DNA of 32,000 nucleotides, taken from assembly GCA_963677105.1 (NCBI GenBank), contig OY781871.1, positions 690,001 to 722,000 on the forward strand. The letters are read 5' to 3'. Source of the stretch: Candidatus Saccharimonadota bacterium. Its GTDB lineage: Bacteria > Patescibacteriota > Gracilibacteria > UBA4473. A model generated the notes under the pieces. It was not told the origin of the DNA and did no database searches. It was given only the letters and a program-made list of their open reading frames with translations. Both the position numbers and the translations under genes were made by a program. Positions 3,591-30,050 of the stretch are shown here, piece by piece; position 1 is the stretch's first letter; the number at the start of each line of letters is the position of its first letter.

Positions 3591-5000
3591 TTGAAAATTT
3601 ACAATCTTCATGGCAGACTCGACGTAATGCAAAACAGTTGGAGCTCATTTGTTTTTGAAAATTGGGAGTGGAACGCAGAAAAGAAGAATCTTTCATTGCG
3701 TTATTCTTTTGATGGAGAAATTCAATTTGAAGAAAATTGGTGGTTTGATTTTGAAATCACAGATCAGATAGATAAGAATGCTTTAGAAAAAGCATTTCAA
3801 GGATTGTGGCTTGCAGCAGGAGTTTCGTATTTCAAAGCAGCTCTTCCGAAAACGATCCGTTTTCGGGAAAGTACAGAGAACAAATTTCAAAGTACAAAGG
3901 GCAAAGAACAAATAGTAAATAACAAACTACAAAGTGCAAATATTTCTGAGTCACAAGCTGCATTTTTTGAAAAAGTGTGGATGAATGGATTGGGGGAGTT
4001 TTTCTTTCAGAACAGAATTGATCCAACGGGAAAAGTTCAGTTTTTGGCAGATAAAACTACAAACTACACACTACAAATTACAAATAGGGAATTCAAACTT
4101 GAGGGTGCATTACTTCCGATTGGTGGAGGAAAAGATTCGCTTGTTTCTGCAATTTTGCTTCGTGCTGGAAATATCGATTTCGAAACGTGGACCGTTGGAG
4201 ATTCAGAAGTGCAATCAGGTTGTTGTACTGCATTATCTGTTCCACGAGCGAAAGTTCGTCGAAAGATTTGTCCAAATCTTCTTCGACTCAATAAAGAAGG
4301 AGCACTCAATGGACATATTCCAATTTCTTCGATTCTTGCATTTGCAGGAGTTGCGTCTGCGTTACTTCGTGGAAAAAAATATGTCATTCTTTCCAATGAA
4401 TCTTCTGCTTCGGAGCCAAACACTGAGTGGGAAGGATTAGAAATAAATCATCAATGGTCGAAGTCGTTGGAATTTGAACAAGAATTTCAAAAATACGTAA
4501 TAGAAAACATCTCATCAGAAGTGAAATACTTTTCATTGCTTCGTCCTTTATCAGAGCTTCATATAGCAGAAATTTTCGCAAAAAAAGGCTGGGAAGAATT
4601 CGGATCGATTTTCTCAAGTTGTAATCGAAACTTTCATTTAGAAGGTTCAAAAATCTTTTCTCGATGGTGTGGGACGTGTCCAAAATGTGTCTTTGTTTCG
4701 CTCATTTTATCGCCATGGATTTCAGAAAAACAGATGAAAGAATCGTTCGGTTCAGTTCCGTTTGCAGAAACAAAAAATGAAACGCTTGTGAAAGAGTTAC
4801 TCGGATTACAAGGAATAAAACCGTTAGAATGTGTTGGAACTATTGCTGAAGCGAGAGAAGCGGTTATTTTGGGATCAGAGAAACACGAATGTTTACAACA
4901 ATGGACAAAAAAGTTTTCAAATCCAAACTTTGATCATCGCAAGTGGCATCAACATCAATTGCCATTAGAATTTGAAACAATTTTAAAAAATATCACATGA
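3591..5000 (+). CDS. PP-loop (adenine-nucleotide alpha-hydrolase-like) protein; candidate MurL-like UDP-MurNAc-L-Ala-L-Glu epimerase
   Basis: 469 aa. Has a PP-loop-like LPIGGGKDSLVS motif, a SNESSASEP segment and a C-terminal CGTCPKC motif. ATGA-coupled to the downstream mini-protein and a MurD-type ligase. The start is TTG at 3591; an alternative ATG is at 3627. Carries two in-frame heptamer arrays. The MurL call is context plus memory, not an alignment. Confidence 0.55.
   Translation: MKIYNLHGRLDVMQNSWSSFVFENWEWNAEKKNLSLRYSFDGEIQFEENWWFDFEITDQIDKNALEKAFQGLWLAAGVSYFKAALPKTIRFRESTENKFQSTKGKEQIVNNKLQSANISESQAAFFEKVWMNGLGEFFFQNRIDPTGKVQFLADKTTNYTLQITNREFKLEGALLPIGGGKDSLVSAILLRAGNIDFETWTVGDSEVQSGCCTALSVPRAKVRRKICPNLLRLNKEGALNGHIPISSILAFAGVASALLRGKKYVILSNESSASEPNTEWEGLEINHQWSKSLEFEQEFQKYVIENISSEVKYFSLLRPLSELHIAEIFAKKGWEEFGSIFSSCNRNFHLEGSKIFSRWCGTCPKCVFVSLILSPWISEKQMKESFGSVPFAETKNETLVKELLGLQGIKPLECVGTIAEAREAVILGSEKHECLQQWTKKFSNPNFDHRKWHQHQLPLEFETILKNIT
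3871..3940 (+). repeat. Heptamer array (NNNCAAA) x10 inside a CDS
   Basis: Units are gtacaga gaacaaa tttcaaa gtacaaa gggcaaa gaacaaa tagtaaa taacaaa ctacaaa gtgcaaa. Translated in frame as ENKFQSTKGKEQIVNNKLQSAN. Confidence 0.8.
4057..4092 (+). repeat. Heptamer array x4 plus TAGGGAAT tail inside a CDS
   Basis: Units are ctacaaa ctacaca ctacaaa ttacaaa, then tagggaat. Translated as TTNYTLQITNRE. The tail matches the intergenic copy at 6487. Confidence 0.85.
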
Positions 5001-6458: not shown

Positions 6459-6494
6459 TATCAAACTACAAACTACAAAGTTCAAATAGGGATT
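6459..6494 (+). repeat. Heptamer array x4 plus TAGGGATT tail
   Basis: Units are tatcaaa ctacaaa ctacaaa gttcaaa, then tagggatt. Starts 3 nt after the murD TAA (6454-6456). Fills the convergent gap to the zinc-ribbon gene. Confidence 0.85.
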
Positions 6495-14088: not shown

Positions 14089-16110
14089 TTATTTTGGGAA
14101 ATATTCTGTAGAATTTGGCATAACTCCTTGTCCCTCTAGTGAGTCTTCCATAGGAAGTTCATTTGGGTTAATTCGAGTAGTTGCAGTAGGAATAGCTCCT
14201 TGGTTTTCAAGATTATTAGAAGCAACTAATGTCGGATCTTTTTGTTCTACAACAGGAGTTTGATTTTTAAGGGCTTCCATTACAGGTGATTTTTTCTTAA
14301 ATTGGCTCCAGAATTTTTGCCAACGAGATTTTGGTTTTAACATTTTATCTACGTCTTCTTGTGTTAGTTTTGGTAAGAATCCAAGATCCGGAACATCAGA
14401 GCTGTATGTTTTTGTATCTTTTTTCTCAGTACCATTAATGTCAGTAGAGCTTGGAATAACTCCTTGAGCTTCTAGTTCATCTTCAGAGCCTTTAAATTCA
14501 TAATTTGTTTCTCCGCGGTCTTCATCTTTATGACCAGAAGGTTTGTTTTGAGTAAATTCAGCAGGAGCAGCTATTTTAGGTTTTACAACATTAGTGCGAT
14601 CTATTTTTGTTGTTTCAGTGATTCCATCGAGAGCTGTAGAAGTAGGAATCACACCTTGACCTTCTAAGCTGTCAGAGTCATCAGCCTTTTTTGTATCAGC
14701 TTTAGGTGCAGCAGTAGGTTTAATATTTGGAACATCAGTAGGTTTTTTCTGATCTGGAGAAGCTACTTTTTTCTGAGTTTCAGTATCTTTTGTCTCCGCT
14801 CCTCCAAGAGTCGTAGAAGTAGGAATCACACCTTGACCTTCTAAGCTGTCAGAGTCATCAGCCTTTTTTGTATCAGCTTTAGGTGCAGCAGTAGGTTTAA
14901 TATTTGGAACATCAGTAGGTTTTTTCTGATCTGGAGAAGCTACTTTTTTCTGAGTTTCAGTATCTTTTGTCTCCGCTCCTCCAAGAGTCGTAGAAGTAGG
15001 AATCACACCTTGACCTTCTAAGCTGTCAGAGTCATCAGCCTTTTTTGTATCAGCTTTAGGTGCAGCAGTAGGTTTAATATTTGGAACATCAGTAGGTTTT
15101 TTCTGATCTGGAGAAGCTACTTTTTTCTGAGTTTCAGTATCTTTTGTCTCCGCTCCTCCAAGAGTCGTAGAAGTAGGAATCACACCTTGACCTTCTAAGC
15201 TGTCAGAACCAGAAGCTTTATTTACATTTTCTTTTTTCGGATCTTTTGCAGGTTCTTTATTGTCCCAAGCAGGATTAGCATTTTCTTTTTTCGGATCTTT
15301 TGCAGGCTCTTTATTTTCCCAAGCAGGATTAGCATTTTCTTTTTTCGGATCTTTTGCAGGCTCTTTATTTTCCCAAGCAGGATTAGCATTTTCTTTTTTC
15401 GGATCTTTTGCAGGCTCTTTATTTTCCCAAGCAGGATTAGCATTTTCTTTTTTCGGATCTTTTGCAGGTTCTTTATTTTCCCAAGCAGGATTAGCATTTT
15501 CTTTTTTCGGATCTTTTGCAGGTTCTTTATTTTCCCAAGCAGGATTAGCATTTTCTTTTTTCGGATCTTTTCCGGGTTCAGGATTATTCCAAGCACCATT
15601 AGTCTTTTCTTGTGGTTTGTTTTTTCCCACTACAACAGTCTCTGTTCCTTCTGTCCATACATATTGTCCTGGAGAAAGGAAGTTTGCGTATTGCATTGCA
15701 AATTCTTCCCCGTTAATCATTTTTGTCGCAATATCTTGAGGAATTTTGTATTTACTGTTTTTATTCCATTTATCAATTTGTTCTTGTGAAGGACGAGTTC
15801 CTTCCTCGTATCGTACTTTCGCTTTAAAAATACTTGTAATATTTAATTTCTTAGATTCTTTAAATCCTTTTGTAATAGCACCAATTGTGTCACCAGATTG
15901 AACTTCACGAGTTGAAATGTTTCGTTTTGCCATTTCTTTTCCTAATTCAGTTCCCAATAAATTTTGTTCTGTCTGAGACCAAACTAAAACATCTGTAATT
16001 TCTTTTCCTTGTTTAATTTGATTATTTTGAACTTCCGCACCAATAACTTCATTAGTGAAGAAAAGGAATTTAGCATTTTGCTTTGCCGACGCCAATGAAA
16101 GATTTTTCAT
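14089..16110 (-). CDS. Repeat-built Lys/Pro/Glu-rich protein, function unknown
   Basis: 673 aa. About 170 aa of unique N-terminus, with a possible degenerate LysM-like stretch (VQSGDTIGAI...LSPGQYVW). Then 7 x 18-aa repeats (NPAWENKEPAKDPKKENA) and 3.2 x 59-aa repeats. The motif LE[GAN]QG[VA][IM]P recurs 7 times. No obvious signal peptide. Confidence 0.8.
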   Translation of the reverse strand: MKNLSLASAKQNAKFLFFTNEVIGAEVQNNQIKQGKEITDVLVWSQTEQNLLGTELGKEMAKRNISTREVQSGDTIGAITKGFKESKKLNITSIFKAKVRYEEGTRPSQEQIDKWNKNSKYKIPQDIATKMINGEEFAMQYANFLSPGQYVWTEGTETVVVGKNKPQEKTNGAWNNPEPGKDPKKENANPAWENKEPAKDPKKENANPAWENKEPAKDPKKENANPAWENKEPAKDPKKENANPAWENKEPAKDPKKENANPAWENKEPAKDPKKENANPAWDNKEPAKDPKKENVNKASGSDSLEGQGVIPTSTTLGGAETKDTETQKKVASPDQKKPTDVPNIKPTAAPKADTKKADDSDSLEGQGVIPTSTTLGGAETKDTETQKKVASPDQKKPTDVPNIKPTAAPKADTKKADDSDSLEGQGVIPTSTTLGGAETKDTETQKKVASPDQKKPTDVPNIKPTAAPKADTKKADDSDSLEGQGVIPTSTALDGITETTKIDRTNVVKPKIAAPAEFTQNKPSGHKDEDRGETNYEFKGSEDELEAQGVIPSSTDINGTEKKDTKTYSSDVPDLGFLPKLTQEDVDKMLKPKSRWQKFWSQFKKKSPVMEALKNQTPVVEQKDPTLVASNNLENQGAIPTATTRINPNELPMEDSLEGQGVMPNSTEYFPK
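14636..15205. repeat. 177-bp tandem repeat, about 3.2 copies, identical by eye
   Basis: The register marker aggaatcaca recurs at 14644, 14821, 14998 and 15175. Line-by-line comparison of the three full copies shows no differences. Confidence 0.95.
15225..15602. repeat. 54-bp tandem repeat, 7 copies (the last one diverged)
   Basis: The unit starts at 15225, 15279, 15333, 15387, 15441, 15495 and 15549. The only variation is ggctct versus ggttct. It generates spurious repeat ORFs in other frames (15222..15599 and 15260..15739). Confidence 0.95.
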
Positions 16111-16182: not shown

Positions 16183-16203
16183 TATCAAAGATCAAAGATC
16201 AAA
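16183..16203 (+). repeat. Heptamer array x3
   Basis: Units are tatcaaa gatcaaa gatcaaa. The preceding gcttaaaatatcaaa is identical to 6452-6465. It lies between the miaB stop and its terminator hairpin, antisense to miaB. Confidence 0.7.
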
Positions 16204-17600: not shown

Positions 17601-17636
17601 CTACAAACTTCAAATAACAAACTATAAATATGGAAA
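17601..17636 (+). repeat. Heptamer array x4 plus TATGGAAA tail
   Basis: Units are ctacaaa cttcaaa taacaaa ctataaa, then tatggaaa. Lies upstream of miaB, which is on the minus strand. Confidence 0.8.
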
Positions 17637-20529: not shown

Positions 20530-22608
20530 TTATGCGTTTCGATCTGCAATAATTTTTTCTGCAACGTTGTTTGGAACTTTTGCATAATTTCCAAATTCCA
20601 TTGTGAAGCTTGCTCGTCCTTGAGTAAGTGATCGAAGCTCAGTTGCATATCCAAACATTTCTCCAAGAGGAATTTTTGATTTAATGTATTTGTTCAAACC
20701 ACGATCTCCTTGTTCTTGAATAATTCCACGTTTTGATGAAACATTTCCCATTACATCTCCGAGATAATCTTCTGGAGTAATAACTTCTACGTTCATCATT
20801 GGCTCAATAATTGCTGGTCCAGCTTTCTTTCCCCCTTCTTTGAAAGCATTTGCTGCAGCGATTTTAAATGCCAATTCAGAAGAATCCACATCGTGGTATT
20901 TACCATCGATTAGTTCTACCTCAACATCAACCACTTGATATCCAGCAAGAATACCTCGTGTAACAGCTTCTTTAAATCCTTTTTCACATCCTGGGATATA
21001 TTCATTTGGAATAGAAGCTCCTTTAATTGAGTTGATAAAGTTAAATCCAGATCCAGGTTCTCCTGGACGAATTTTACAGATAACGTGTCCAAATTGTCCT
21101 CGTCCACCTGATTGTTTTTTGTGAACATATTCTGCAGTAACTTCCTGAGTAATTGTTTCTCGGTACGCAACTTGCGGCTCTCCAATATTTGCCTCAACGC
21201 CAAATTCACGTTTCATTCTGTCTACAAGAACATCCAAGTGAAGTTCTCCCATTCCGGCAATAATCGTTTGGTTTGTTTCTTCATCAGTCCAGATTTTGAA
21301 AGTAGGATCTTCTTCAGCAAGTTTTTGCAAAGCAAGTCCCATTTTCTCTTGATCTGCTTTTGTTTTCGGTTCAATAGAAATATTAATAACTGGTTCAGGG
21401 AATTCCATTGACTCAAGAGCGAAGTTCGCTTTTTCATCAGCCAAAGTATCTCCTGTTTTTGTAGATTTTAATCCAACAACCGCTCCAATATGTCCTGCTT
21501 GAATTTCAGAAATTTCTTCACGAGTATTCGCGTGCATTTGAAGTAATCGTCCGATTCGTTCCTTTTGCCCAGAAATAGTATTCAAAACATATGATCCTGA
21601 TTTTAAAGTTCCTGTATAAACACGTACAAATGTAAGCCGTCCAACATATGGATCAGTTGCAATTTTAAATGCAAGAACAGCTAATGGACCGTCTTTTTTT
21701 GGAGGAAAATCAATTATTTTTTCTTCATCATCAATATCAGTTCCTTTTGCTGCAGGAATGTCTAATGGAGACGGCATAATTTCAATAACTTTATCAAGCA
21801 TTGGTTGTACTCCTTTATTTTTCAAAGCAGTTCCAGTCAATACAGCTACAAACTCTCCAGCAATAGTAGCTTTTCTCATTCCATCAATAATATCTTTTTC
21901 AGTAAGTTCTTCTCCAGCAAAATATTTTTCCATCAAAGCATCGTCAGTTCCTGCAACAGCTTCGATCATTTTTTCTCTCCATTTGGTTGCTTCTTCTACA
22001 TATTCAGCAGGAATTTCTCCAACAGTAAAATCTTTCCCCATGTCATCATTGAAAACAGTTGCTTCCATACGAATTAAATCAATAATTCCTTGAAAGTTGG
22101 ATTCCATTCCGATTGGGATTTGAATTGGGAAAGCGTTTTTTGTTAATCGTTCAACAATTGATTCATATGAACGCCAGAAAGATGCTCCAGTTCGATCAAG
22201 TTTATTGATGAAACACATTCGTGGAACGTTGTAGTTGTCTGCTTGTCGCCAAACAGTTTCAGATTGTGGTTCTACTCCAGCAACTCCGTCGAAGATACAA
22301 ACAGCTCCGTCAAGAACACGAAGTGATCGTTCAACTTCAACCGTAAAATCAACGTGACCAGGTGTATCGATAATATTAATTTGGCAATTTTTCCAGAAAC
22401 AAGTAGTCGCAGCTGAGGTAATAGTAATACCTCGTTCTTGCTCTTGCTCCATCCAATCCATAGTAGCCTCACCTTCGTGAACCTCTCCTATTTTGTGGGA
22501 TTTTCCTGTGTAATAGAGTACACGCTCTGTTACGGTAGTTTTCCCCGCATCAATGTGAGCGATAATTCCAATATTACGAACCTTGTCTAACGCTGCAATT
22601 TTGTTCAT
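20530..22608 (-). CDS. fusA: Elongation factor G
   Basis: I prefer the Met at 22608 ([25 protein letters not shown]). Has DTPGHVDF and the full five-domain length of 692 aa. The track's 38-aa extension is low-complexity. Confidence 0.96.
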
Positions 22609-22634
22609 TTGTAAATGTTGTAAATTTCGGCGCG

Positions 22635-22662
22635 ATTGTAGGAAATACAGTAGAGTTGTCAA
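22635..22662 (-). promoter_or_regulatory. Sigma70-type promoter for fusA
   Basis: Reverse strand reads TTGACA (22662-22657), 16-nt spacer, TACAAT (22640-22635). Confidence 0.6.
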
Positions 22663-22684
22663 TTTTTTGATGAGGAAGTATAGT
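22656..22684 (+). promoter_or_regulatory. Divergent promoter for the pilin-like gene (near-leaderless)
   Basis: TTGTCA (22656-22661), 17-nt spacer, TATAGT (22679-22684). The ATG at 22692 is 7 nt after the -10 element. Its -35 element overlaps the fusA -35 on the other strand. Confidence 0.5.
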
Positions 22685-22691
22685 TTAACTG

Positions 22692-23114
22692 ATGAAAAAA
22701 ATACACTTGTTTCTTTATACATTTCTTATTTCTGTTCAAAATACTTTTGCTGAAGATTTAGGAGGAATTATTCCTTCAGGACAAGAAGATGATGCAGCAT
22801 TGAAGGCATTAGCAGATCGTGTAGAATTAGGACAAGTAGAAATAAAAGATGTTTTATTTTTTATAGTAAAATTGATTGATTTAGTTTCAGCATTAGCCGG
22901 AACATTGTGTGTGATCATGCTTTTGTATGGAGGATTTCAATACATGATGAGTGGATTAAATGATGACAAAGAGTCAGCGAAAAAAACATTGCGTTACGCT
23001 ATTACAGGATTGATTGTTACTTTTTTAGCATACCTTATTATTAATCTTATTTTTGCTCAGTTTACTGGTCAGGGAATGTCTTGGGATACAGCATGGAAGA
23101 CTCAGTCCATGTAA
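22692..23114 (+). CDS. TrbC/VirB2-like 'T4SS pilin' family small membrane protein
   Basis: 140 aa with a signal peptide and two TM helices. The [42 protein letters not shown] pattern is common in CPR pilin-like proteins (from memory). Confidence 0.65.
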
Positions 23115-23148
23115 TTCAAATTTCAAACTACAAACTACAAACTTCAAA
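23114..23148 (+). repeat. Heptamer array x5
   Basis: Units are attcaaa tttcaaa ctacaaa ctacaaa cttcaaa. Begins on the last base of the TAA stop (23112-23114). Confidence 0.85.
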
Positions 23149-23707: not shown

Positions 23708-23743
23708 CTTCAATTTACAAATTACAAATTACAAATTTAGAAT
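23708..23743 (+). repeat. Heptamer array x4 plus TTTAGAAT tail
   Basis: Units are cttcaat ttacaaa ttacaaa ttacaaa, then tttagaat. Starts 3 nt after the TAA stop (23703-23705). Confidence 0.85.
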
Positions 23744-23820: not shown

Positions 23821-25143
23821 ATGAAATTGCCTGAATTATTATTACCCGGGGGATCACTTGAAAAAGCGCGTGTCGCTTTTCGTTATGGAGCGGACGCAAT
23901 TTATATCGGATCGCCGATGTTTTCTTTGCGAACACGAGAAAATAAAACAACAGAAAATGATATTGCAACGATTGTAAAAGAGGCACATGAATTAAAGAAA
24001 AAGGTGTATGTGACGATTAACGCATTTCCGCATCAATCATCGATTCCAGTATTTCGAAAACATTTAGAACGTTTAAAAGAAATAAAACCAGACGGAATTA
24101 TTTTTGCTGATTGGGGAATTTGTGCAATGGCACGAGAAATTTGCCCAGAAATTCCACTACATCTTTCTGTTCAATCTTGCACGATGAACGAACCAGCAAT
24201 TCGTCAATGGCAAAAACTTGGAGTAGTTCGTTTAATTACGGCACGAGAAATGAGTGTTGCAGAAGTAAAACAAATTCATGATTTGATGCCCGATTTGGAA
24301 ATAGAATATTTTATTCATGGAAGTGTGTGTATGGCGTATTCTGGTCGCTGTATTATGTCGGCTTTTACTGGAGGAAGAGACGCAAATGCGGGAACATGTA
24401 ATCATACATGTCGCTGGAATTACAGAGTAAAAGATGAAGATGGAAATGAAGTTGAAATGGGACCACATGTAGCAAATTGCGTAGGATGTTCGGATGGAGA
24501 AACTCGTTCAATCGAGAGTTTTGAAAAAAATTGTTTGATCGAAGAAGAACAAAGAAAAGGAGAACATTTTCCTGTTGAAGAAGATTTTCATGGAACTCAT
24601 ATTATGAGTTCTCGTGACATGGCGATGATTGAGTTTTTACCACAAATCATTGATGCTGGAGTTTGTAGCTTAAAAGTAGAAGGACGAAATAAAACGGCAT
24701 ATTATGTTGCTACAGTTGCGCGCGCATATCGAAAAGCATTGGACAATATTGCACAAGGAAAAGAATTTGATTCTCAATTATGGAAAGAATTACAGGCGAG
24801 TGCGAATCGAGGATTTTTTCCTGGATTTTCTCAAGGGAAACCGCAAAAAGGAGATATCCAATATGAGGCGAATCGATCACATTCCACACATAAATTTATA
24901 GGATATGTTGTGTCATGGAAAAATGGACGAGCAGAAATTATTGTAAAAAATCGTATTGATAACGGAGACGAAGTAGAAGTGGTAATGCCAAATATAGATG
25001 ACGATTTTTCTTTCATTGCGAAAAATATGCAATTTGGAGAAAAGAACGTTGATTCGCTACACGGCGGAAATGGTAATGAAGTTGCGAGTATTGCTTGTGA
25101 AAAAGAGATTCCTCAGGGGGTTTTTTTGAGAAAAAAAGTCTAA
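23821..25143 (+). CDS. Peptidase U32 family protein
   Basis: MKLPELLLPGGSLEKARVAFRYGADAIYIG start and U32 signature EYFIHGSVCMAYSGRC, plus EGRNKTAYYVATV. Confidence 0.88.
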   Translation: MKLPELLLPGGSLEKARVAFRYGADAIYIGSPMFSLRTRENKTTENDIATIVKEAHELKKKVYVTINAFPHQSSIPVFRKHLERLKEIKPDGIIFADWGICAMAREICPEIPLHLSVQSCTMNEPAIRQWQKLGVVRLITAREMSVAEVKQIHDLMPDLEIEYFIHGSVCMAYSGRCIMSAFTGGRDANAGTCNHTCRWNYRVKDEDGNEVEMGPHVANCVGCSDGETRSIESFEKNCLIEEEQRKGEHFPVEEDFHGTHIMSSRDMAMIEFLPQIIDAGVCSLKVEGRNKTAYYVATVARAYRKALDNIAQGKEFDSQLWKELQASANRGFFPGFSQGKPQKGDIQYEANRSHSTHKFIGYVVSWKNGRAEIIVKNRIDNGDEVEVVMPNIDDDFSFIAKNMQFGEKNVDSLHGGNGNEVASIACEKEIPQGVFLRKKV

Positions 25144-25168: not shown

Positions 25169-25203
25169 TTCCAAATAACAAACTGGAAATACCAAAGTAG
25201 AAA
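25169..25203 (+). repeat. Heptamer array x5 (degenerate)
   Basis: Units are ttccaaa taacaaa ctggaaa taccaaa gtagaaa. Lies between the U32 stop and the terminator hairpin. Confidence 0.65.
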
Positions 25204-25212
25204 ACCGGAAAG

Positions 25213-25238
25213 GCGAAGCGGAAGCTTCGCTTTTTTTT
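25213..25238 (+). terminator. Intrinsic terminator
   Basis: GCGAAGC (25213-25219), loop GGAA, GCTTCGC (25224-25230), then T8. Confidence 0.85.
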
Positions 25239-25249
25239 GTGTATAAAAA

Positions 25250-25800
25250 AAACTCCGTCCAGAGTATCTCTACGAGAATGCAGTATTAAGTGCAACTGAG
25301 AGGACTGAACGGAGTAAGGGGAAACCACCCCCGAACTCTGCCTTGCTGAGGAAATTTTTAAAGACCGCGTTTCCACTCGGTATCCATGATGTAGGAAATA
25401 ACGTTGAAAAGAAATCAAAGAAGTTATAGGCTACGGATAGTAAAAAAAGAAAGAAGAATTTCTAAAGACGAGGTCTTTGGAAATTTTTCAAAATACCACG
25501 AACCGGCTATTGAGAGGCGGCTTCGAGATGGGTCGGAGTCGTCTAAGGATAGTCGAATCGTAATATCTGCCTCTACGCGGTTTCGCGGTGCATCTAAACT
25601 AAGAGGTTAGGCTTAGGAGACGACATCGCAAAGCGGAGAGAACCAAGGAATCAAAAAAGGGTTACTTGAGAATTAATTACTTAATTCTCTCCGGAACTTG
25701 AAGTGTGAAAGATCTGAGAAGGAGGAACACCGGGTAGGAACGTTTCAAAAATAATTGCCCGCTACCCGAATGTTCAGGACATGATATTCACGGAGAGTAA
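25250..25800 (+). ncRNA. Unclassified structured-RNA candidate (one roughly 550-nt RNA, or two RNAs split near 25490)
   Basis: No credible ORF. Hand-counted GC is 55% for 25501-25560 against 27% for 25861-25920. Many complementary segments: 25252-60/25302-15; GGGG 25318-21/CCCC 25328-31; a 13-bp hairpin at 25457-85; 25538-44/25618-24; 25569-74/25602-07; 25635-42/25685-92; 25668-76/25681-89; 25731-37/25762-68; and end-closing 25253-58/25790-95. G-U pairs (T63-G79, G69-T607) fit only the + strand. The boundaries are approximate. Confidence 0.35.
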
Positions 25801-25889
25801 ATTTGTCAAAAAACTCATATTGATCCAAGAAACAAAACATTTTAAAGTATAAAAAATGTATACAAAGAAGGGCCATTTAAAGGGACTTT

Positions 25890-25932
25890 TGTCAAAGTAC
25901 AAATAACAAATTTTAAATAACAAAATTAGAAT
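25890..25932 (+). repeat. Heptamer array x5 plus ATTAGAAT tail
   Basis: Units are tgtcaaa gtacaaa taacaaa ttttaaa taacaaa, then attagaat. Confidence 0.8.
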
Positions 25933-25967: not shown

Positions 25968-25995
25968 TTGACGTGATAAGGGAATTTCTTACAAT
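25968..25995 (+). promoter_or_regulatory. Sigma70-type promoter for tRNA-Glu
   Basis: TTGACG (25968-25973), 16-nt spacer, TACAAT (25990-25995). The tRNA starts at 26012. Confidence 0.6.
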
Positions 25996-26011: not shown

Positions 26012-26086
26012 GGCGCCATCGTCTAGTGGTTAGGACTCAGGATTCTCATTCCTGCAACGGGGGTTCGATTCCCCCTGGCGCTACCA
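26012..26086 (+). tRNA. tRNA-Glu (anticodon CUC), CCA encoded
   Basis: Hand-folded cloverleaf. Acceptor GGCGCCA/TGGCGCT, D-arm GTCT-AGTGGTTA-GGAC, anticodon arm CAGGA-TTCTCAT-TCCTG, 4-nt variable loop, T-arm GGGGG-TTCGATT-CCCCC, discriminator A, then CCA. Confidence 0.93.
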
Positions 26087-26405: not shown

Positions 26406-26681
26406 ATGGAAAACGGTAAAAAATTGTTCATTGGAAATCTTCCATACAGTGTAACAAGTGATGATTTGGAAGCAGCTTTTGCAGAGGCAGGAACAGTTAC
26501 TTCTGCACAAATTGTTACAGATCGAGAAACAGGACGTCCTCGTGGATTTGGTTTTGTTGAAATGGAATCAGATGAAATGGCTCAAGCAGCAATTGAAATG
26601 TGGAACGAAAAAGAACTAAAAGGACGAACAATATTTGTGAATGTTGCTCGACCTAAAAATGACGCACCACGTCGTTACTAA
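26406..26681 (+). CDS. RRM-type RNA-binding protein
   Basis: 91 aa. RNP2 KLFIGNL and RNP1 RGFGFVEM. Confidence 0.92.
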   Translation: MENGKKLFIGNLPYSVTSDDLEAAFAEAGTVTSAQIVTDRETGRPRGFGFVEMESDEMAQAAIEMWNEKELKGRTIFVNVARPKNDAPRRY

Positions 26682-29986: not shown

Positions 29987-30050
29987 TTTCAATGTACAAA
30001 GTGCAAATAACAGATAATTAATTTTGTCTTTGTGCTTTGAAGTTTGATAT
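29987..30050. repeat. Inverted pair of heptamer arrays (hairpin-capable)
   Basis: The forward arm is tttcaat gtacaaa gtgcaaa taacaga (29987-30014) and the reverse arm is tttgtct ttgtgct ttgaagt ttgatat (30023-30050). 29997-30007 can pair with 30029-30039 (11 bp including 2 G-U). It starts 3 nt after the TGA stop. Confidence 0.7.

Follow-up and report, generated by a model that had tools for sequence, protein, structure and literature searches.

A gene for a structured RNA in a small clade of Candidate Phyla Radiation bacteria, with central hairpins of the opposite strand sense

The 32,000-nt stretch of contig OY781871.1 analyzed here (positions 690,001 to 722,000, referred to as the window) comes from a bacterium of the Candidate Phyla Radiation (CPR). 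A U32-family gene (23821–25143, plus strand, stop at 25143) and tRNA-Glu(CUC) (26012–26086, plus strand) are separated in it by a gap of 868 bp, which holds an island with a GC content of 43% versus 27% in the flank, the mean of the window being 0.365. A first-pass annotation of the sequence had proposed that this island encodes, on the plus strand, a structured non-coding RNA outside the standard housekeeping RNAs. Such an RNA is supported by conservation, by covariation and by the lack of both a conserved open reading frame (ORF) and an Rfam match, and the island is a previously undescribed RNA family of a small clade of Peribacteria/Gracilibacteria-like CPR bacteria. The plus-strand assignment did not hold, as the promoter, the terminator and the extent of the recurring unit consistently place the gene on the minus strand.

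The local GC contents counted by hand in that annotation, 0.550 for 25501–25560 and 0.267 for 25861–25920, were exact. The two gene signals it had placed beside the island were also found, namely the terminator of the U32 gene at 25207–25236 (plus strand) and a tRNA-Glu promoter, TTGACG-16-TACAAT, at 25968–25995. The host is assigned to the CPR with its U32-family protein being 85% identical to proteins of metagenome-assembled genomes labelled Candidatus Gracilibacteria or Candidatus Peribacteria. The long ORFs of the window are intact under translation table 11, with TGA used as a stop codon.

Gene signals and conservation of the unit

The signals that delimit the minus-strand gene, together with the terminator of the convergent gene, are as follows.

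~25774 to ~25247, minus strand: predicted primary transcript of ~530 nt, between the conserved promoter and the terminator, with its 3' end in the U-tract 25245–25252
25809 to 25781, minus strand: sigma-70 promoter TTGACA-17-TATCAT, the best promoter-like site of the region (11/12)
25843–25867, no strand assigned: conserved upstream element TTTTAAAGTATAAAAAATGTATACA (plus strand), 35–60 nt upstream of the −35 hexamer, kept in 7/8 homologues and not in L011
25245–25315, minus strand: terminator, a long hairpin (HT, 25252–25315) followed by U8 (25245–25252), with a hairpin and U6–U9 in homologues
25207–25236, plus strand: terminator of the U32/TrhP-like gene from the terminator scan, given as context for the convergent gene

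Homologues were gathered by walking from relatives of the U32 protein and by one metagenome scan with a two-block DNA pattern, and were identified with nhmmer. The island was found in seven distinct loci (L004, L008/L009, L010, L011, L015, L017 and L019), with truncated copies in L002 and L005. Of the matches of the metagenome scan, two were true loci, and one (L016/L018) was unrelated and due to chance. The DNA identity of the island to its homologues is 71–85%, versus 70–80% for the U32 gene, and the spacers on either side of the conserved unit cannot be aligned between homologues. No ORF in the island has a Pfam match and no frame is conserved in the homologues under tables 11 and 25; the open stretches vary in their frames and stop codons, and the indels are not multiples of three. 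The earlier statement that no credible ORF is present was thus borne out for the whole 868-bp gap. Because the DNA is kept like that of the U32 gene, the flanking spacers are unalignable and the open frames differ among homologues, the island is considered to be non-coding and under purifying selection.

The same minus-strand promoter site is the top match of the promoter scan in L004, L010, L011 and L019. In the 8-sequence alignment its hexamers are invariant or near-invariant (TTGACA; TATCAT or TAAGAT) and the 16–17-nt spacer varies freely. Only four copies of TTGACA-N16-18-TANNNT occur in the 32 kb, and each of the other three directly precedes a correctly oriented gene. At the opposite end, the terminator hairpin with U6–U9 is present in all six homologues that cover it (6/6), its stem covaries, and a U·G pair is kept in the minus sense; this terminator stands back to back with that of the U32 gene. 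The conserved promoter, the hairpin and U-tract terminator, and their coincidence with the boundaries of the recurring unit described below argue for a minus-strand gene, with a promoter upstream and an intrinsic terminator on one strand as expected of an independent non-coding RNA gene. No plus-strand promoter was found ahead of the island inside the 669-nt block shared by L004 and L017. It is noted that the upstream element at 25843–25867 (AAGTATAAAAAATGTATACA) is AT-rich, unique in the window and carries GTATA/TATAC half-sites. It may be the binding site of a regulator.

The extent of the unit is defined by a 669-nt block that L004 (3182–3850) and L017 (997–1665) have in common at 98.7% identity, and in which homology ends abruptly on both sides. 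One end of this block coincides exactly with the U-tract, and the other lies ~115 nt upstream of the −35 hexamer. It lies between the U32 gene and tRNA-Glu with an RRM protein gene in L004, and between an S1-domain gene and ruvB in L017; in L010 the unit (1836–2439) has a U32 gene on one side and ruvB on the other. These three context types, U32|tRNA-Glu, S1|RuvB and U32|RuvB, are such as recombination between two copies would produce. The near-identity of L004 and L017, together with the fact that several contigs (L002, L005 and L015) end inside the unit, suggests two copies per genome or recent movement. In every context the unit is convergent with a plus-strand protein gene, U32 or S1, the U32-family gene being the commonest such neighbor. 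The adjacency to a tRNA gene pointed out previously is real in 5/8 contexts (the window, L004, L008, L015 and L019), where tRNA-Glu adjoins the unit on either strand. It is constant neither in presence nor in orientation: in L010 and L017 the place of tRNA-Glu is taken by ruvB, and L011 has other genes there. The island is absent next to the U32 or S1 genes of relatives at 63–71% protein identity (U32: P0010, P0012, P0014 and P0016; S1: P0128).

Searches for known families were negative for the island. At the gathering score, cmscan with all 4227 Rfam families yielded only the tRNA in the window. At E ≤ 10 no family fell inside the island of the window, the weak matches (L20 leader, MicC and others) all being on the U32 terminator, and at E ≤ 5 no Rfam match to the island was obtained in five homologous loci. 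This agrees with the first-pass annotation, which had seen no RNase P RNA, transfer-messenger RNA (tmRNA), signal recognition particle (SRP) RNA or 6S RNA; none of these, nor ROOL, GOLLD or OLE RNA, which it had also listed for comparison, has a covariance model that matches. The kinship with ROOL or GOLLD that it had entertained is not supported either, given the housekeeping neighbors and the lack of phage or plasmid similarity. BLASTN of the island found nothing in a phage collection (50,697 records) or in a plasmid collection, and a scan of viral contigs with the two-block DNA pattern gave no island locus. Neither group I nor group II introns were signaled by the Rfam models in the window or the five homologous loci. 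ARAGORN detected no tmRNA in the window or in the homologous loci, and the tmRNA covariance model has no match inside the island, where a T-arm, an acceptor stem and a tag ORF are all missing.

Two of these RNAs had also been considered from short words in the sequence, and were rejected. The RNase P-like words on the plus strand, GAGGAAA..AAGACCGCG and GGCUUAGG, are not conserved in the homologues; AAAGACC varies, GGCUUA is part of a covarying stem, and CR-I/CR-V (P4) conservation is lacking. The tmRNA-like words GAUUCGAC and GAUGUAGGAAAU are short matches without a tRNA-like domain.

Helices, covariation and the two strand senses

The helices and the candidate internal promoter are listed below, with the strand on which each is read.

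25732–25767, minus strand: H1, the 5' hairpin, kept in homologues and truncated in L008 and L019
25635–25692, minus strand: H2, a long hairpin with a variable tip, in which 8 pairs change on both sides
25590–25624, minus strand: H3, a hairpin with the loop CCUAACCU, whose inner and outer stems covary
25495–25589, minus strand: H4 domain, in which the outer helix 25581–25589/25495–25502 (ACCGCGAAA/UUCGUGGU, minus sense) encloses the composite hairpin
25364–25440, minus strand: H5 (25380–25440) and H6 (25364–25381), with closing pairs A-U, G·U or G-C in the minus sense
25340–25346, minus strand: GCAAGGC, 3' strand of a long-range helix predicted by RNAalifold, with 25628–25634 (GCUUUGC) as partner
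25318–25332, minus strand: H7, a GGGG/CCCC hairpin, kept in homologues and uninformative on strand
25453–25489, plus strand: Hmid, a hairpin of variable sequence, more stable in the plus sense in 7/7 homologues
25504–25555, plus strand: composite 8+12-bp hairpin, canonical only in the plus sense
25404–25432, plus strand: candidate internal promoter TTGAAA-17-TAGGCT, from which transcription would start ~14 nt before the plus-sense centre

Compared with dinucleotide shuffles, the island is more stably folded, with z-scores of −5.0 and −4.2 on the two strands, and the values across homologues range from −4.5 to −8.3. The RNAalifold consensus of seven sequences in the minus sense contains 89 pairs. 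In this consensus, which was derived from the same few sequences on which it is scored, 94.3% of cells are paired, and in 22 pairs both partners change, a number reached in 0/500 shuffles. When the partners were slid by 1–3 columns as a control, only 35–41% remained paired. Compensatory changes, the check that the first-pass annotation had named for its proposal, are therefore present in many helices of the homologues. The well-supported features are H1, H2, H3, the outer helix of H4, H5, H6 and the terminator stem.

Several of the pairings that had been drawn by hand coincide with these helices. The pairing of 25252–60 with 25302–15 is the terminator stem, the hairpin at 25457–85 is Hmid, and 25731–37 with 25762–68 is H1; all three are kept in homologues with covariation, and the GGGG/CCCC hairpin at 25318–31 is kept as well. 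Two nested pairings (25538–44 with 25618–24, and 25569–74 with 25602–07) are not found in homologues. The same is true of the end-closing helix of 25253–58 with 25790–95, which sits in the variable promoter spacer.

The energies computed by RNAalifold do not separate the strands (−66 vs −71 kcal/mol), and the strand sense was read from individual helices. H3 is more stable in the minus sense in 7/7 homologues and H2 in 6/7. For the outer helix of H4, two pairs follow a path from C-G and G·U in the window through U·G and G·U in L004, L015 and L019 to U-A and G-C in L011, a path that is canonical only in the minus sense. Such minus-sense-only wobble paths are found in H2, H3, the H4 outer helix, H6 and HT. 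The centre, 25453–25555, is canonical only in the plus sense in 7/7 homologues. The summed minimum free energy (MFE) of Hmid is −118.3 kcal/mol in the plus sense vs −64.6 kcal/mol in the minus sense, with 18 vs 1 G·U pairs. The corresponding values for the composite hairpin are −166.5 vs −35.9 kcal/mol and 35 vs 0 G·U pairs, so that the centre overall has 53 G·U pairs in the plus sense vs 1 in the minus sense. A covariance model of the composite hairpin was built from five sequences, and the held-out copy of L011 aligns to it at 22.6 bits. The alignment guided by this model has 97.5% of cells paired and 6 pairs that change on both sides (0/500 shuffles). Four G·U positions of the hairpin are invariant or nearly so, and these would become A·C mismatches in every sequence if the hairpin were read in the minus sense. 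The earlier remark that G-U pairs occur only if the plus strand is the RNA is therefore correct for the central hairpins and incorrect for the flanks, where H2, H3 and the H4 outer helix form such pairs in the minus sense only. Stable stem-loops under selection, as expected of one partner of a cis-antisense pair, are found on the strand antisense to the predicted transcript.

Two other accounts of the plus-sense centre were rejected. A mutational bias tied to replication could not be the sole cause of the plus-sense wobbles, because adjacent helices show the opposite wobble pattern. Inversion of a segment was also considered. A repeat, CTACGGATAGT (25431–25441) and CTAAGGATAGT (25543–25553), with 10/11 positions identical, brackets most of the plus-sense centre and is kept in close homologues but not in L011. 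Being direct and not inverted, and missing from L011, the CTACGGATAGT/CTAAGGATAGT pair does not fit an invertible segment. The candidate internal promoter matches at 8/12 positions in the window, which is under the threshold of the scan; the homologous site matches at 9–10/12 in L004, L010 and L011 and is absent in L019.

Neighboring genes and heptamer arrays

The neighbors of the unit are housekeeping genes, encoding EF-G, Jag/KhpB, the TrhP-like protein, an RRM protein and TypA. The best match of the U32-family protein is TrhP, a prephenate-dependent tRNA U34 hydroxylase, at 421 bits, below the curated cut-off of 534. The product annotated as a U32 peptidase in the window may thus be an RNA-modifying enzyme and not a protease. 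A small RRM-type RNA-binding protein of the 'Rbp regulator' family adjoins the tRNA-Glu/RNA unit in three contexts (26406–26681 in the window, 4249–4539 in L004 and 5208–5498 in L015), and a Jag/KhpB-like KH-R3H protein is encoded directly upstream of the U32 gene. These two proteins are candidate partners of the RNA, as is the S1 protein encoded beside it.

Arrays of the form (NNNCAAA)n, with a period of 7, make up an intergenic motif that is spread over the genome. At least nine are present in the window, versus 0.015 expected in shuffles, and they also occur in the homologous loci. Two of them lie near the unit.

25890–25932, plus strand: array (NNNCAAA)n at the distal end of the conserved unit, inside the block common to L004, L017 and the window and upstream of the promoter
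25169–25203, plus strand: degenerate array in the 3' spacer of the U32 gene, outside the conserved unit and given as context

Both had been noted previously, and their period of 7 and common orientation were confirmed. They do not bracket a cassette, as had been suggested, because the motif is genome-wide and only the right array falls within the conserved block, the left one being outside. The 11-nt direct repeat CAAATAACAAA (25172 and 25900) was rejected as a target-site duplication on the same grounds, being part of the genome-wide heptamer motif with its left copy outside the conserved block. G-poor arrays of three to five heptamers (e.g. CTACAAA) were seen on the plus strand at 3881–3940, 6462–6486, 16186–16203, 17604–17621, 23117–23148, 23718–23735 and 25893–25910, and on the minus strand at 30029–30046; arrays also stand upstream of the RNA promoter in L004 and L017. 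Several begin within a few nucleotides of a plus-strand stop codon (6456, 23114 and 23705). The arrays could possibly be a rut-like or otherwise unstructured 3' tract, or the site of an RNA-binding protein. A 469-aa ORF with a TTG start (3591–5000, plus strand) contains arrays at 3881–3940 and 4049–4091 in its first third, which suggests intergenic spacer; this ORF is probably mis-called.

Two further observations concern other genes of the window. The match of the EF-G ORF (20530–22722, minus strand) to the EF-G family begins only at residue 38, and a perfect promoter, TTGACA-16-TACAAT, lies at 22635–22662 (minus strand) inside the called N-terminus. On both counts, translation probably starts at a codon beyond the first ATG. 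A 673-aa ORF (14089–16110, minus strand) contains tandem DNA repeats at 14623–15234 and 15159–15665, with units of 177 nt (3 copies, 94–98% identical) and 54 nt (7 copies, up to 96% identical); the product is rich in repeats and probably a surface protein.

Interpretation and comparison with known systems

We propose that the island forms a gene unit of its own, non-coding and ~680 bp long (25245–25925). Its main product would be a minus-strand RNA of ~530 nt, transcribed from a sigma-70 promoter close to consensus as far as a long hairpin and its U-tract. The fold of the RNA would begin with the 5' hairpin H1 and the long hairpin H2, after which a predicted long-range helix would close a junction from which H3, H4, H5 and H6 extend. 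We infer that the gene is strongly expressed, and that the RNA most likely acts in trans, as a folded RNA or an RNA-protein scaffold comparable to other orphan large bacterial RNAs; it would be neither a leader, nor a riboswitch, nor a mobile cassette. Nested in the gene, the central two-hairpin module is under selection for plus-strand pairing. This is explained most economically if both strands are transcribed at the centre, the plus strand possibly from the weak internal promoter, and the resulting cis-antisense RNA could pair with the weakly structured centre of the long RNA and control it. Such a nested antisense RNA is the leading account of the opposing strand senses and is unproven. 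Taken as a whole, a trans-acting RNA of ~530 nt from a minus-strand gene with a nested plus-strand antisense RNA is the reading that we find reasonably probable.

A number of points weigh against this proposal. The strongest single structural signal, that of the centre, is in the plus sense, and the flank evidence for the minus sense is moderate; H1, H5/H6 and HT are thermodynamically neutral between the strands. The z-score of the MFE of the whole element is better for the plus strand in 5/6 homologues. The long-range helix, which would close a five-way junction, is invariant in the seven sequences, so that it draws no support from covariation and is unproven. The internal plus promoter is weak and should be taken as a lead, not a finding, and the terminator scan of the window, L004, L010, L011 and L019 found no plus-strand terminator after the centre (25555). 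It should also be mentioned that the family was sampled with only seven sequences, five of which are close relatives, with most of the covariation contributed by L011 and L019, and that it is, as sampled, restricted to a narrow clade of Peribacteria/Gracilibacteria-like CPR bacteria.

Some of these points are what would be expected if the functional RNA were the plus strand over the whole island. It would then be transcribed from the upstream gene, as the 3' untranslated region of U32 or S1, or from an unrecognized promoter, and the minus promoter would give an antisense or spurious transcript. In addition to the better z-scores, the MFE of the plus strand is lower in every homologue, and the central hairpins, canonical only in the plus sense, show strong covariation. 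However, no conserved plus promoter exists upstream of 25247. The unit begins exactly at the A-tract, which means that such an RNA would depend on two unrelated upstream genes; in most loci the upstream gene has its own terminator before the island, and no plus-strand terminator is present at the right end. Moreover, H3 (7/7), H2 (6/7) and the H4 outer helix would carry A·C mismatches, and the conserved A6–9 run before HT would have no role in the plus sense. We consider this alternative unlikely.

A comparably low probability is given to a minus-strand RNA alone, with no antisense gene. The centre would in that case pair in the plus sense for some other purpose, for instance to block or terminate read-through from the convergent protein gene or to provide a signal when the DNA is single-stranded. 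The constant convergence of the unit with a plus-strand U32 or S1 gene is consistent with such a barrier, as is the U-rich run that follows Hmid in the plus sense in most homologues. The terminator scan, however, calls neither hairpin in the window or in four homologues, the composite hairpin has no U-tail, and the upstream genes are already terminated.

The remaining explanations fare worse. The occurrence of the 669-nt block in two unrelated contexts at 98.7% identity, the contigs that end inside the unit and the direct repeats nearby would suit repeated or mobile non-coding DNA, such as an element resembling a miniature inverted-repeat transposable element, an ORF-less intron or a recombination cassette. 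This is very unlikely: the block has neither terminal inverted repeats nor a target duplication at its ends, its boundaries are the promoter region and the terminator, intron signals of both groups are missing, the 32-kb window contains a single copy, the helices are under purifying selection with compensatory changes, and the heptamers are genome-wide. The chance is slightly smaller still that the island is an extremely divergent RNase P RNA, tmRNA, 6S RNA or SRP RNA missed by current models. The size and strong promoter would fit an abundant RNA, and there are loose RNase P-like words on the plus strand (GAGGAAA..., GGCUUA) and words of 8–12 nt in common with tmRNA; yet permissive covariance-model searches of the window and five homologous loci gave no such family, ARAGORN found no tmRNA, the T-arm, acceptor stem and tag ORF are missing, and the words resembling RNase P are not kept across homologues. 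A decayed protein-coding gene, suggested by open stretches of 46–85 codons on the plus strand, has next to no standing, with frames and stops that differ among homologues, indels that are not multiples of three, no Pfam match, and DNA kept as well as that of an intact gene and with hairpin covariation.

Large structured bacterial RNAs (>400 nt) without a known function are rare, and OLE, GOLLD, ROOL and HEARO each led to unexpected biology. The unit described here is likely to be important to its host, because the tiny CPR genomes have little spare DNA and yet this ~680-bp unit is kept like a protein gene, has a consensus promoter and is possibly present in two copies. A strand mosaic within one transcription unit is unusual and predicts two overlapping transcripts. 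In addition, GC-enriched islands without ORFs in AT-rich CPR genomes can expose RNA families that annotation based on Rfam has missed. A broader picture, which we regard as doubtful in its entirety, would be a two-strand chromosomal RNA locus built as an RNA-only module without a protein gene. A new ~530-nt RNA, acting as a ribonucleoprotein scaffold or a ribozyme, would be encoded by two gene copies per ~1-Mb genome. A convergent promoter inside the gene would give rise to a nested antisense RNA with a stable fold, directed against the centre of this RNA. The two copies would be recombination substrates that reshuffle synteny among U32|tRNA-Glu, S1|RuvB and U32|RuvB.

We have compared the unit with several known systems. 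OLE RNA (ornate large extremophilic RNA; RF01071) has ~600 nt and many conserved helices, is lineage-restricted, had for long no assigned function and is presumed to form a ribonucleoprotein (PMC12265935). The RNA proposed here is likewise a lineage-restricted, stand-alone bacterial non-coding RNA of about this size with many conserved helices and junction nucleotides. It differs from OLE RNA in having no covariance-model match, in belonging to the CPR instead of the Firmicutes, and in that no oap-type partner genes were seen; OLE RNA, in turn, has no module on the opposite strand. ROOL and GOLLD are encoded in phages and prophages, often near tRNA islands (PMC12286853). They resemble the island in being large (>500 nt), helix-rich, ORF-free and sometimes next to tRNA genes. 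In contrast, the island has housekeeping neighbors and a single tRNA that varies in presence and orientation, and it has no phage similarity and matches the covariance model neither of ROOL nor of GOLLD, an RNA with a conserved 3' domain. RNase P RNA is similar in order of size, in the predicted long-range closing helix and in the strong independent promoter; its CR-I/CR-V (P4), however, is not conserved in the homologues, and neither the bacterial type A and B models nor the archaeal model gives a signal.

The nested module is best compared with cis-antisense pairs that have convergent promoters, such as RNA I/RNA II of ColE1, CopA/CopT of R1 and prgQ/Anti-Q of pCF10. In the proposed arrangement, as in these pairs, a short RNA of stable stem-loops would lie opposite the middle of a longer transcript, with convergent promoters a few hundred bp apart. 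The promoter of the antisense RNA is a candidate here, and no antisense terminator was seen. The plasmid systems have an mRNA or a primer as their target and serve to control replication or conjugation, whereas the target at this locus would be a large chromosomal non-coding RNA.

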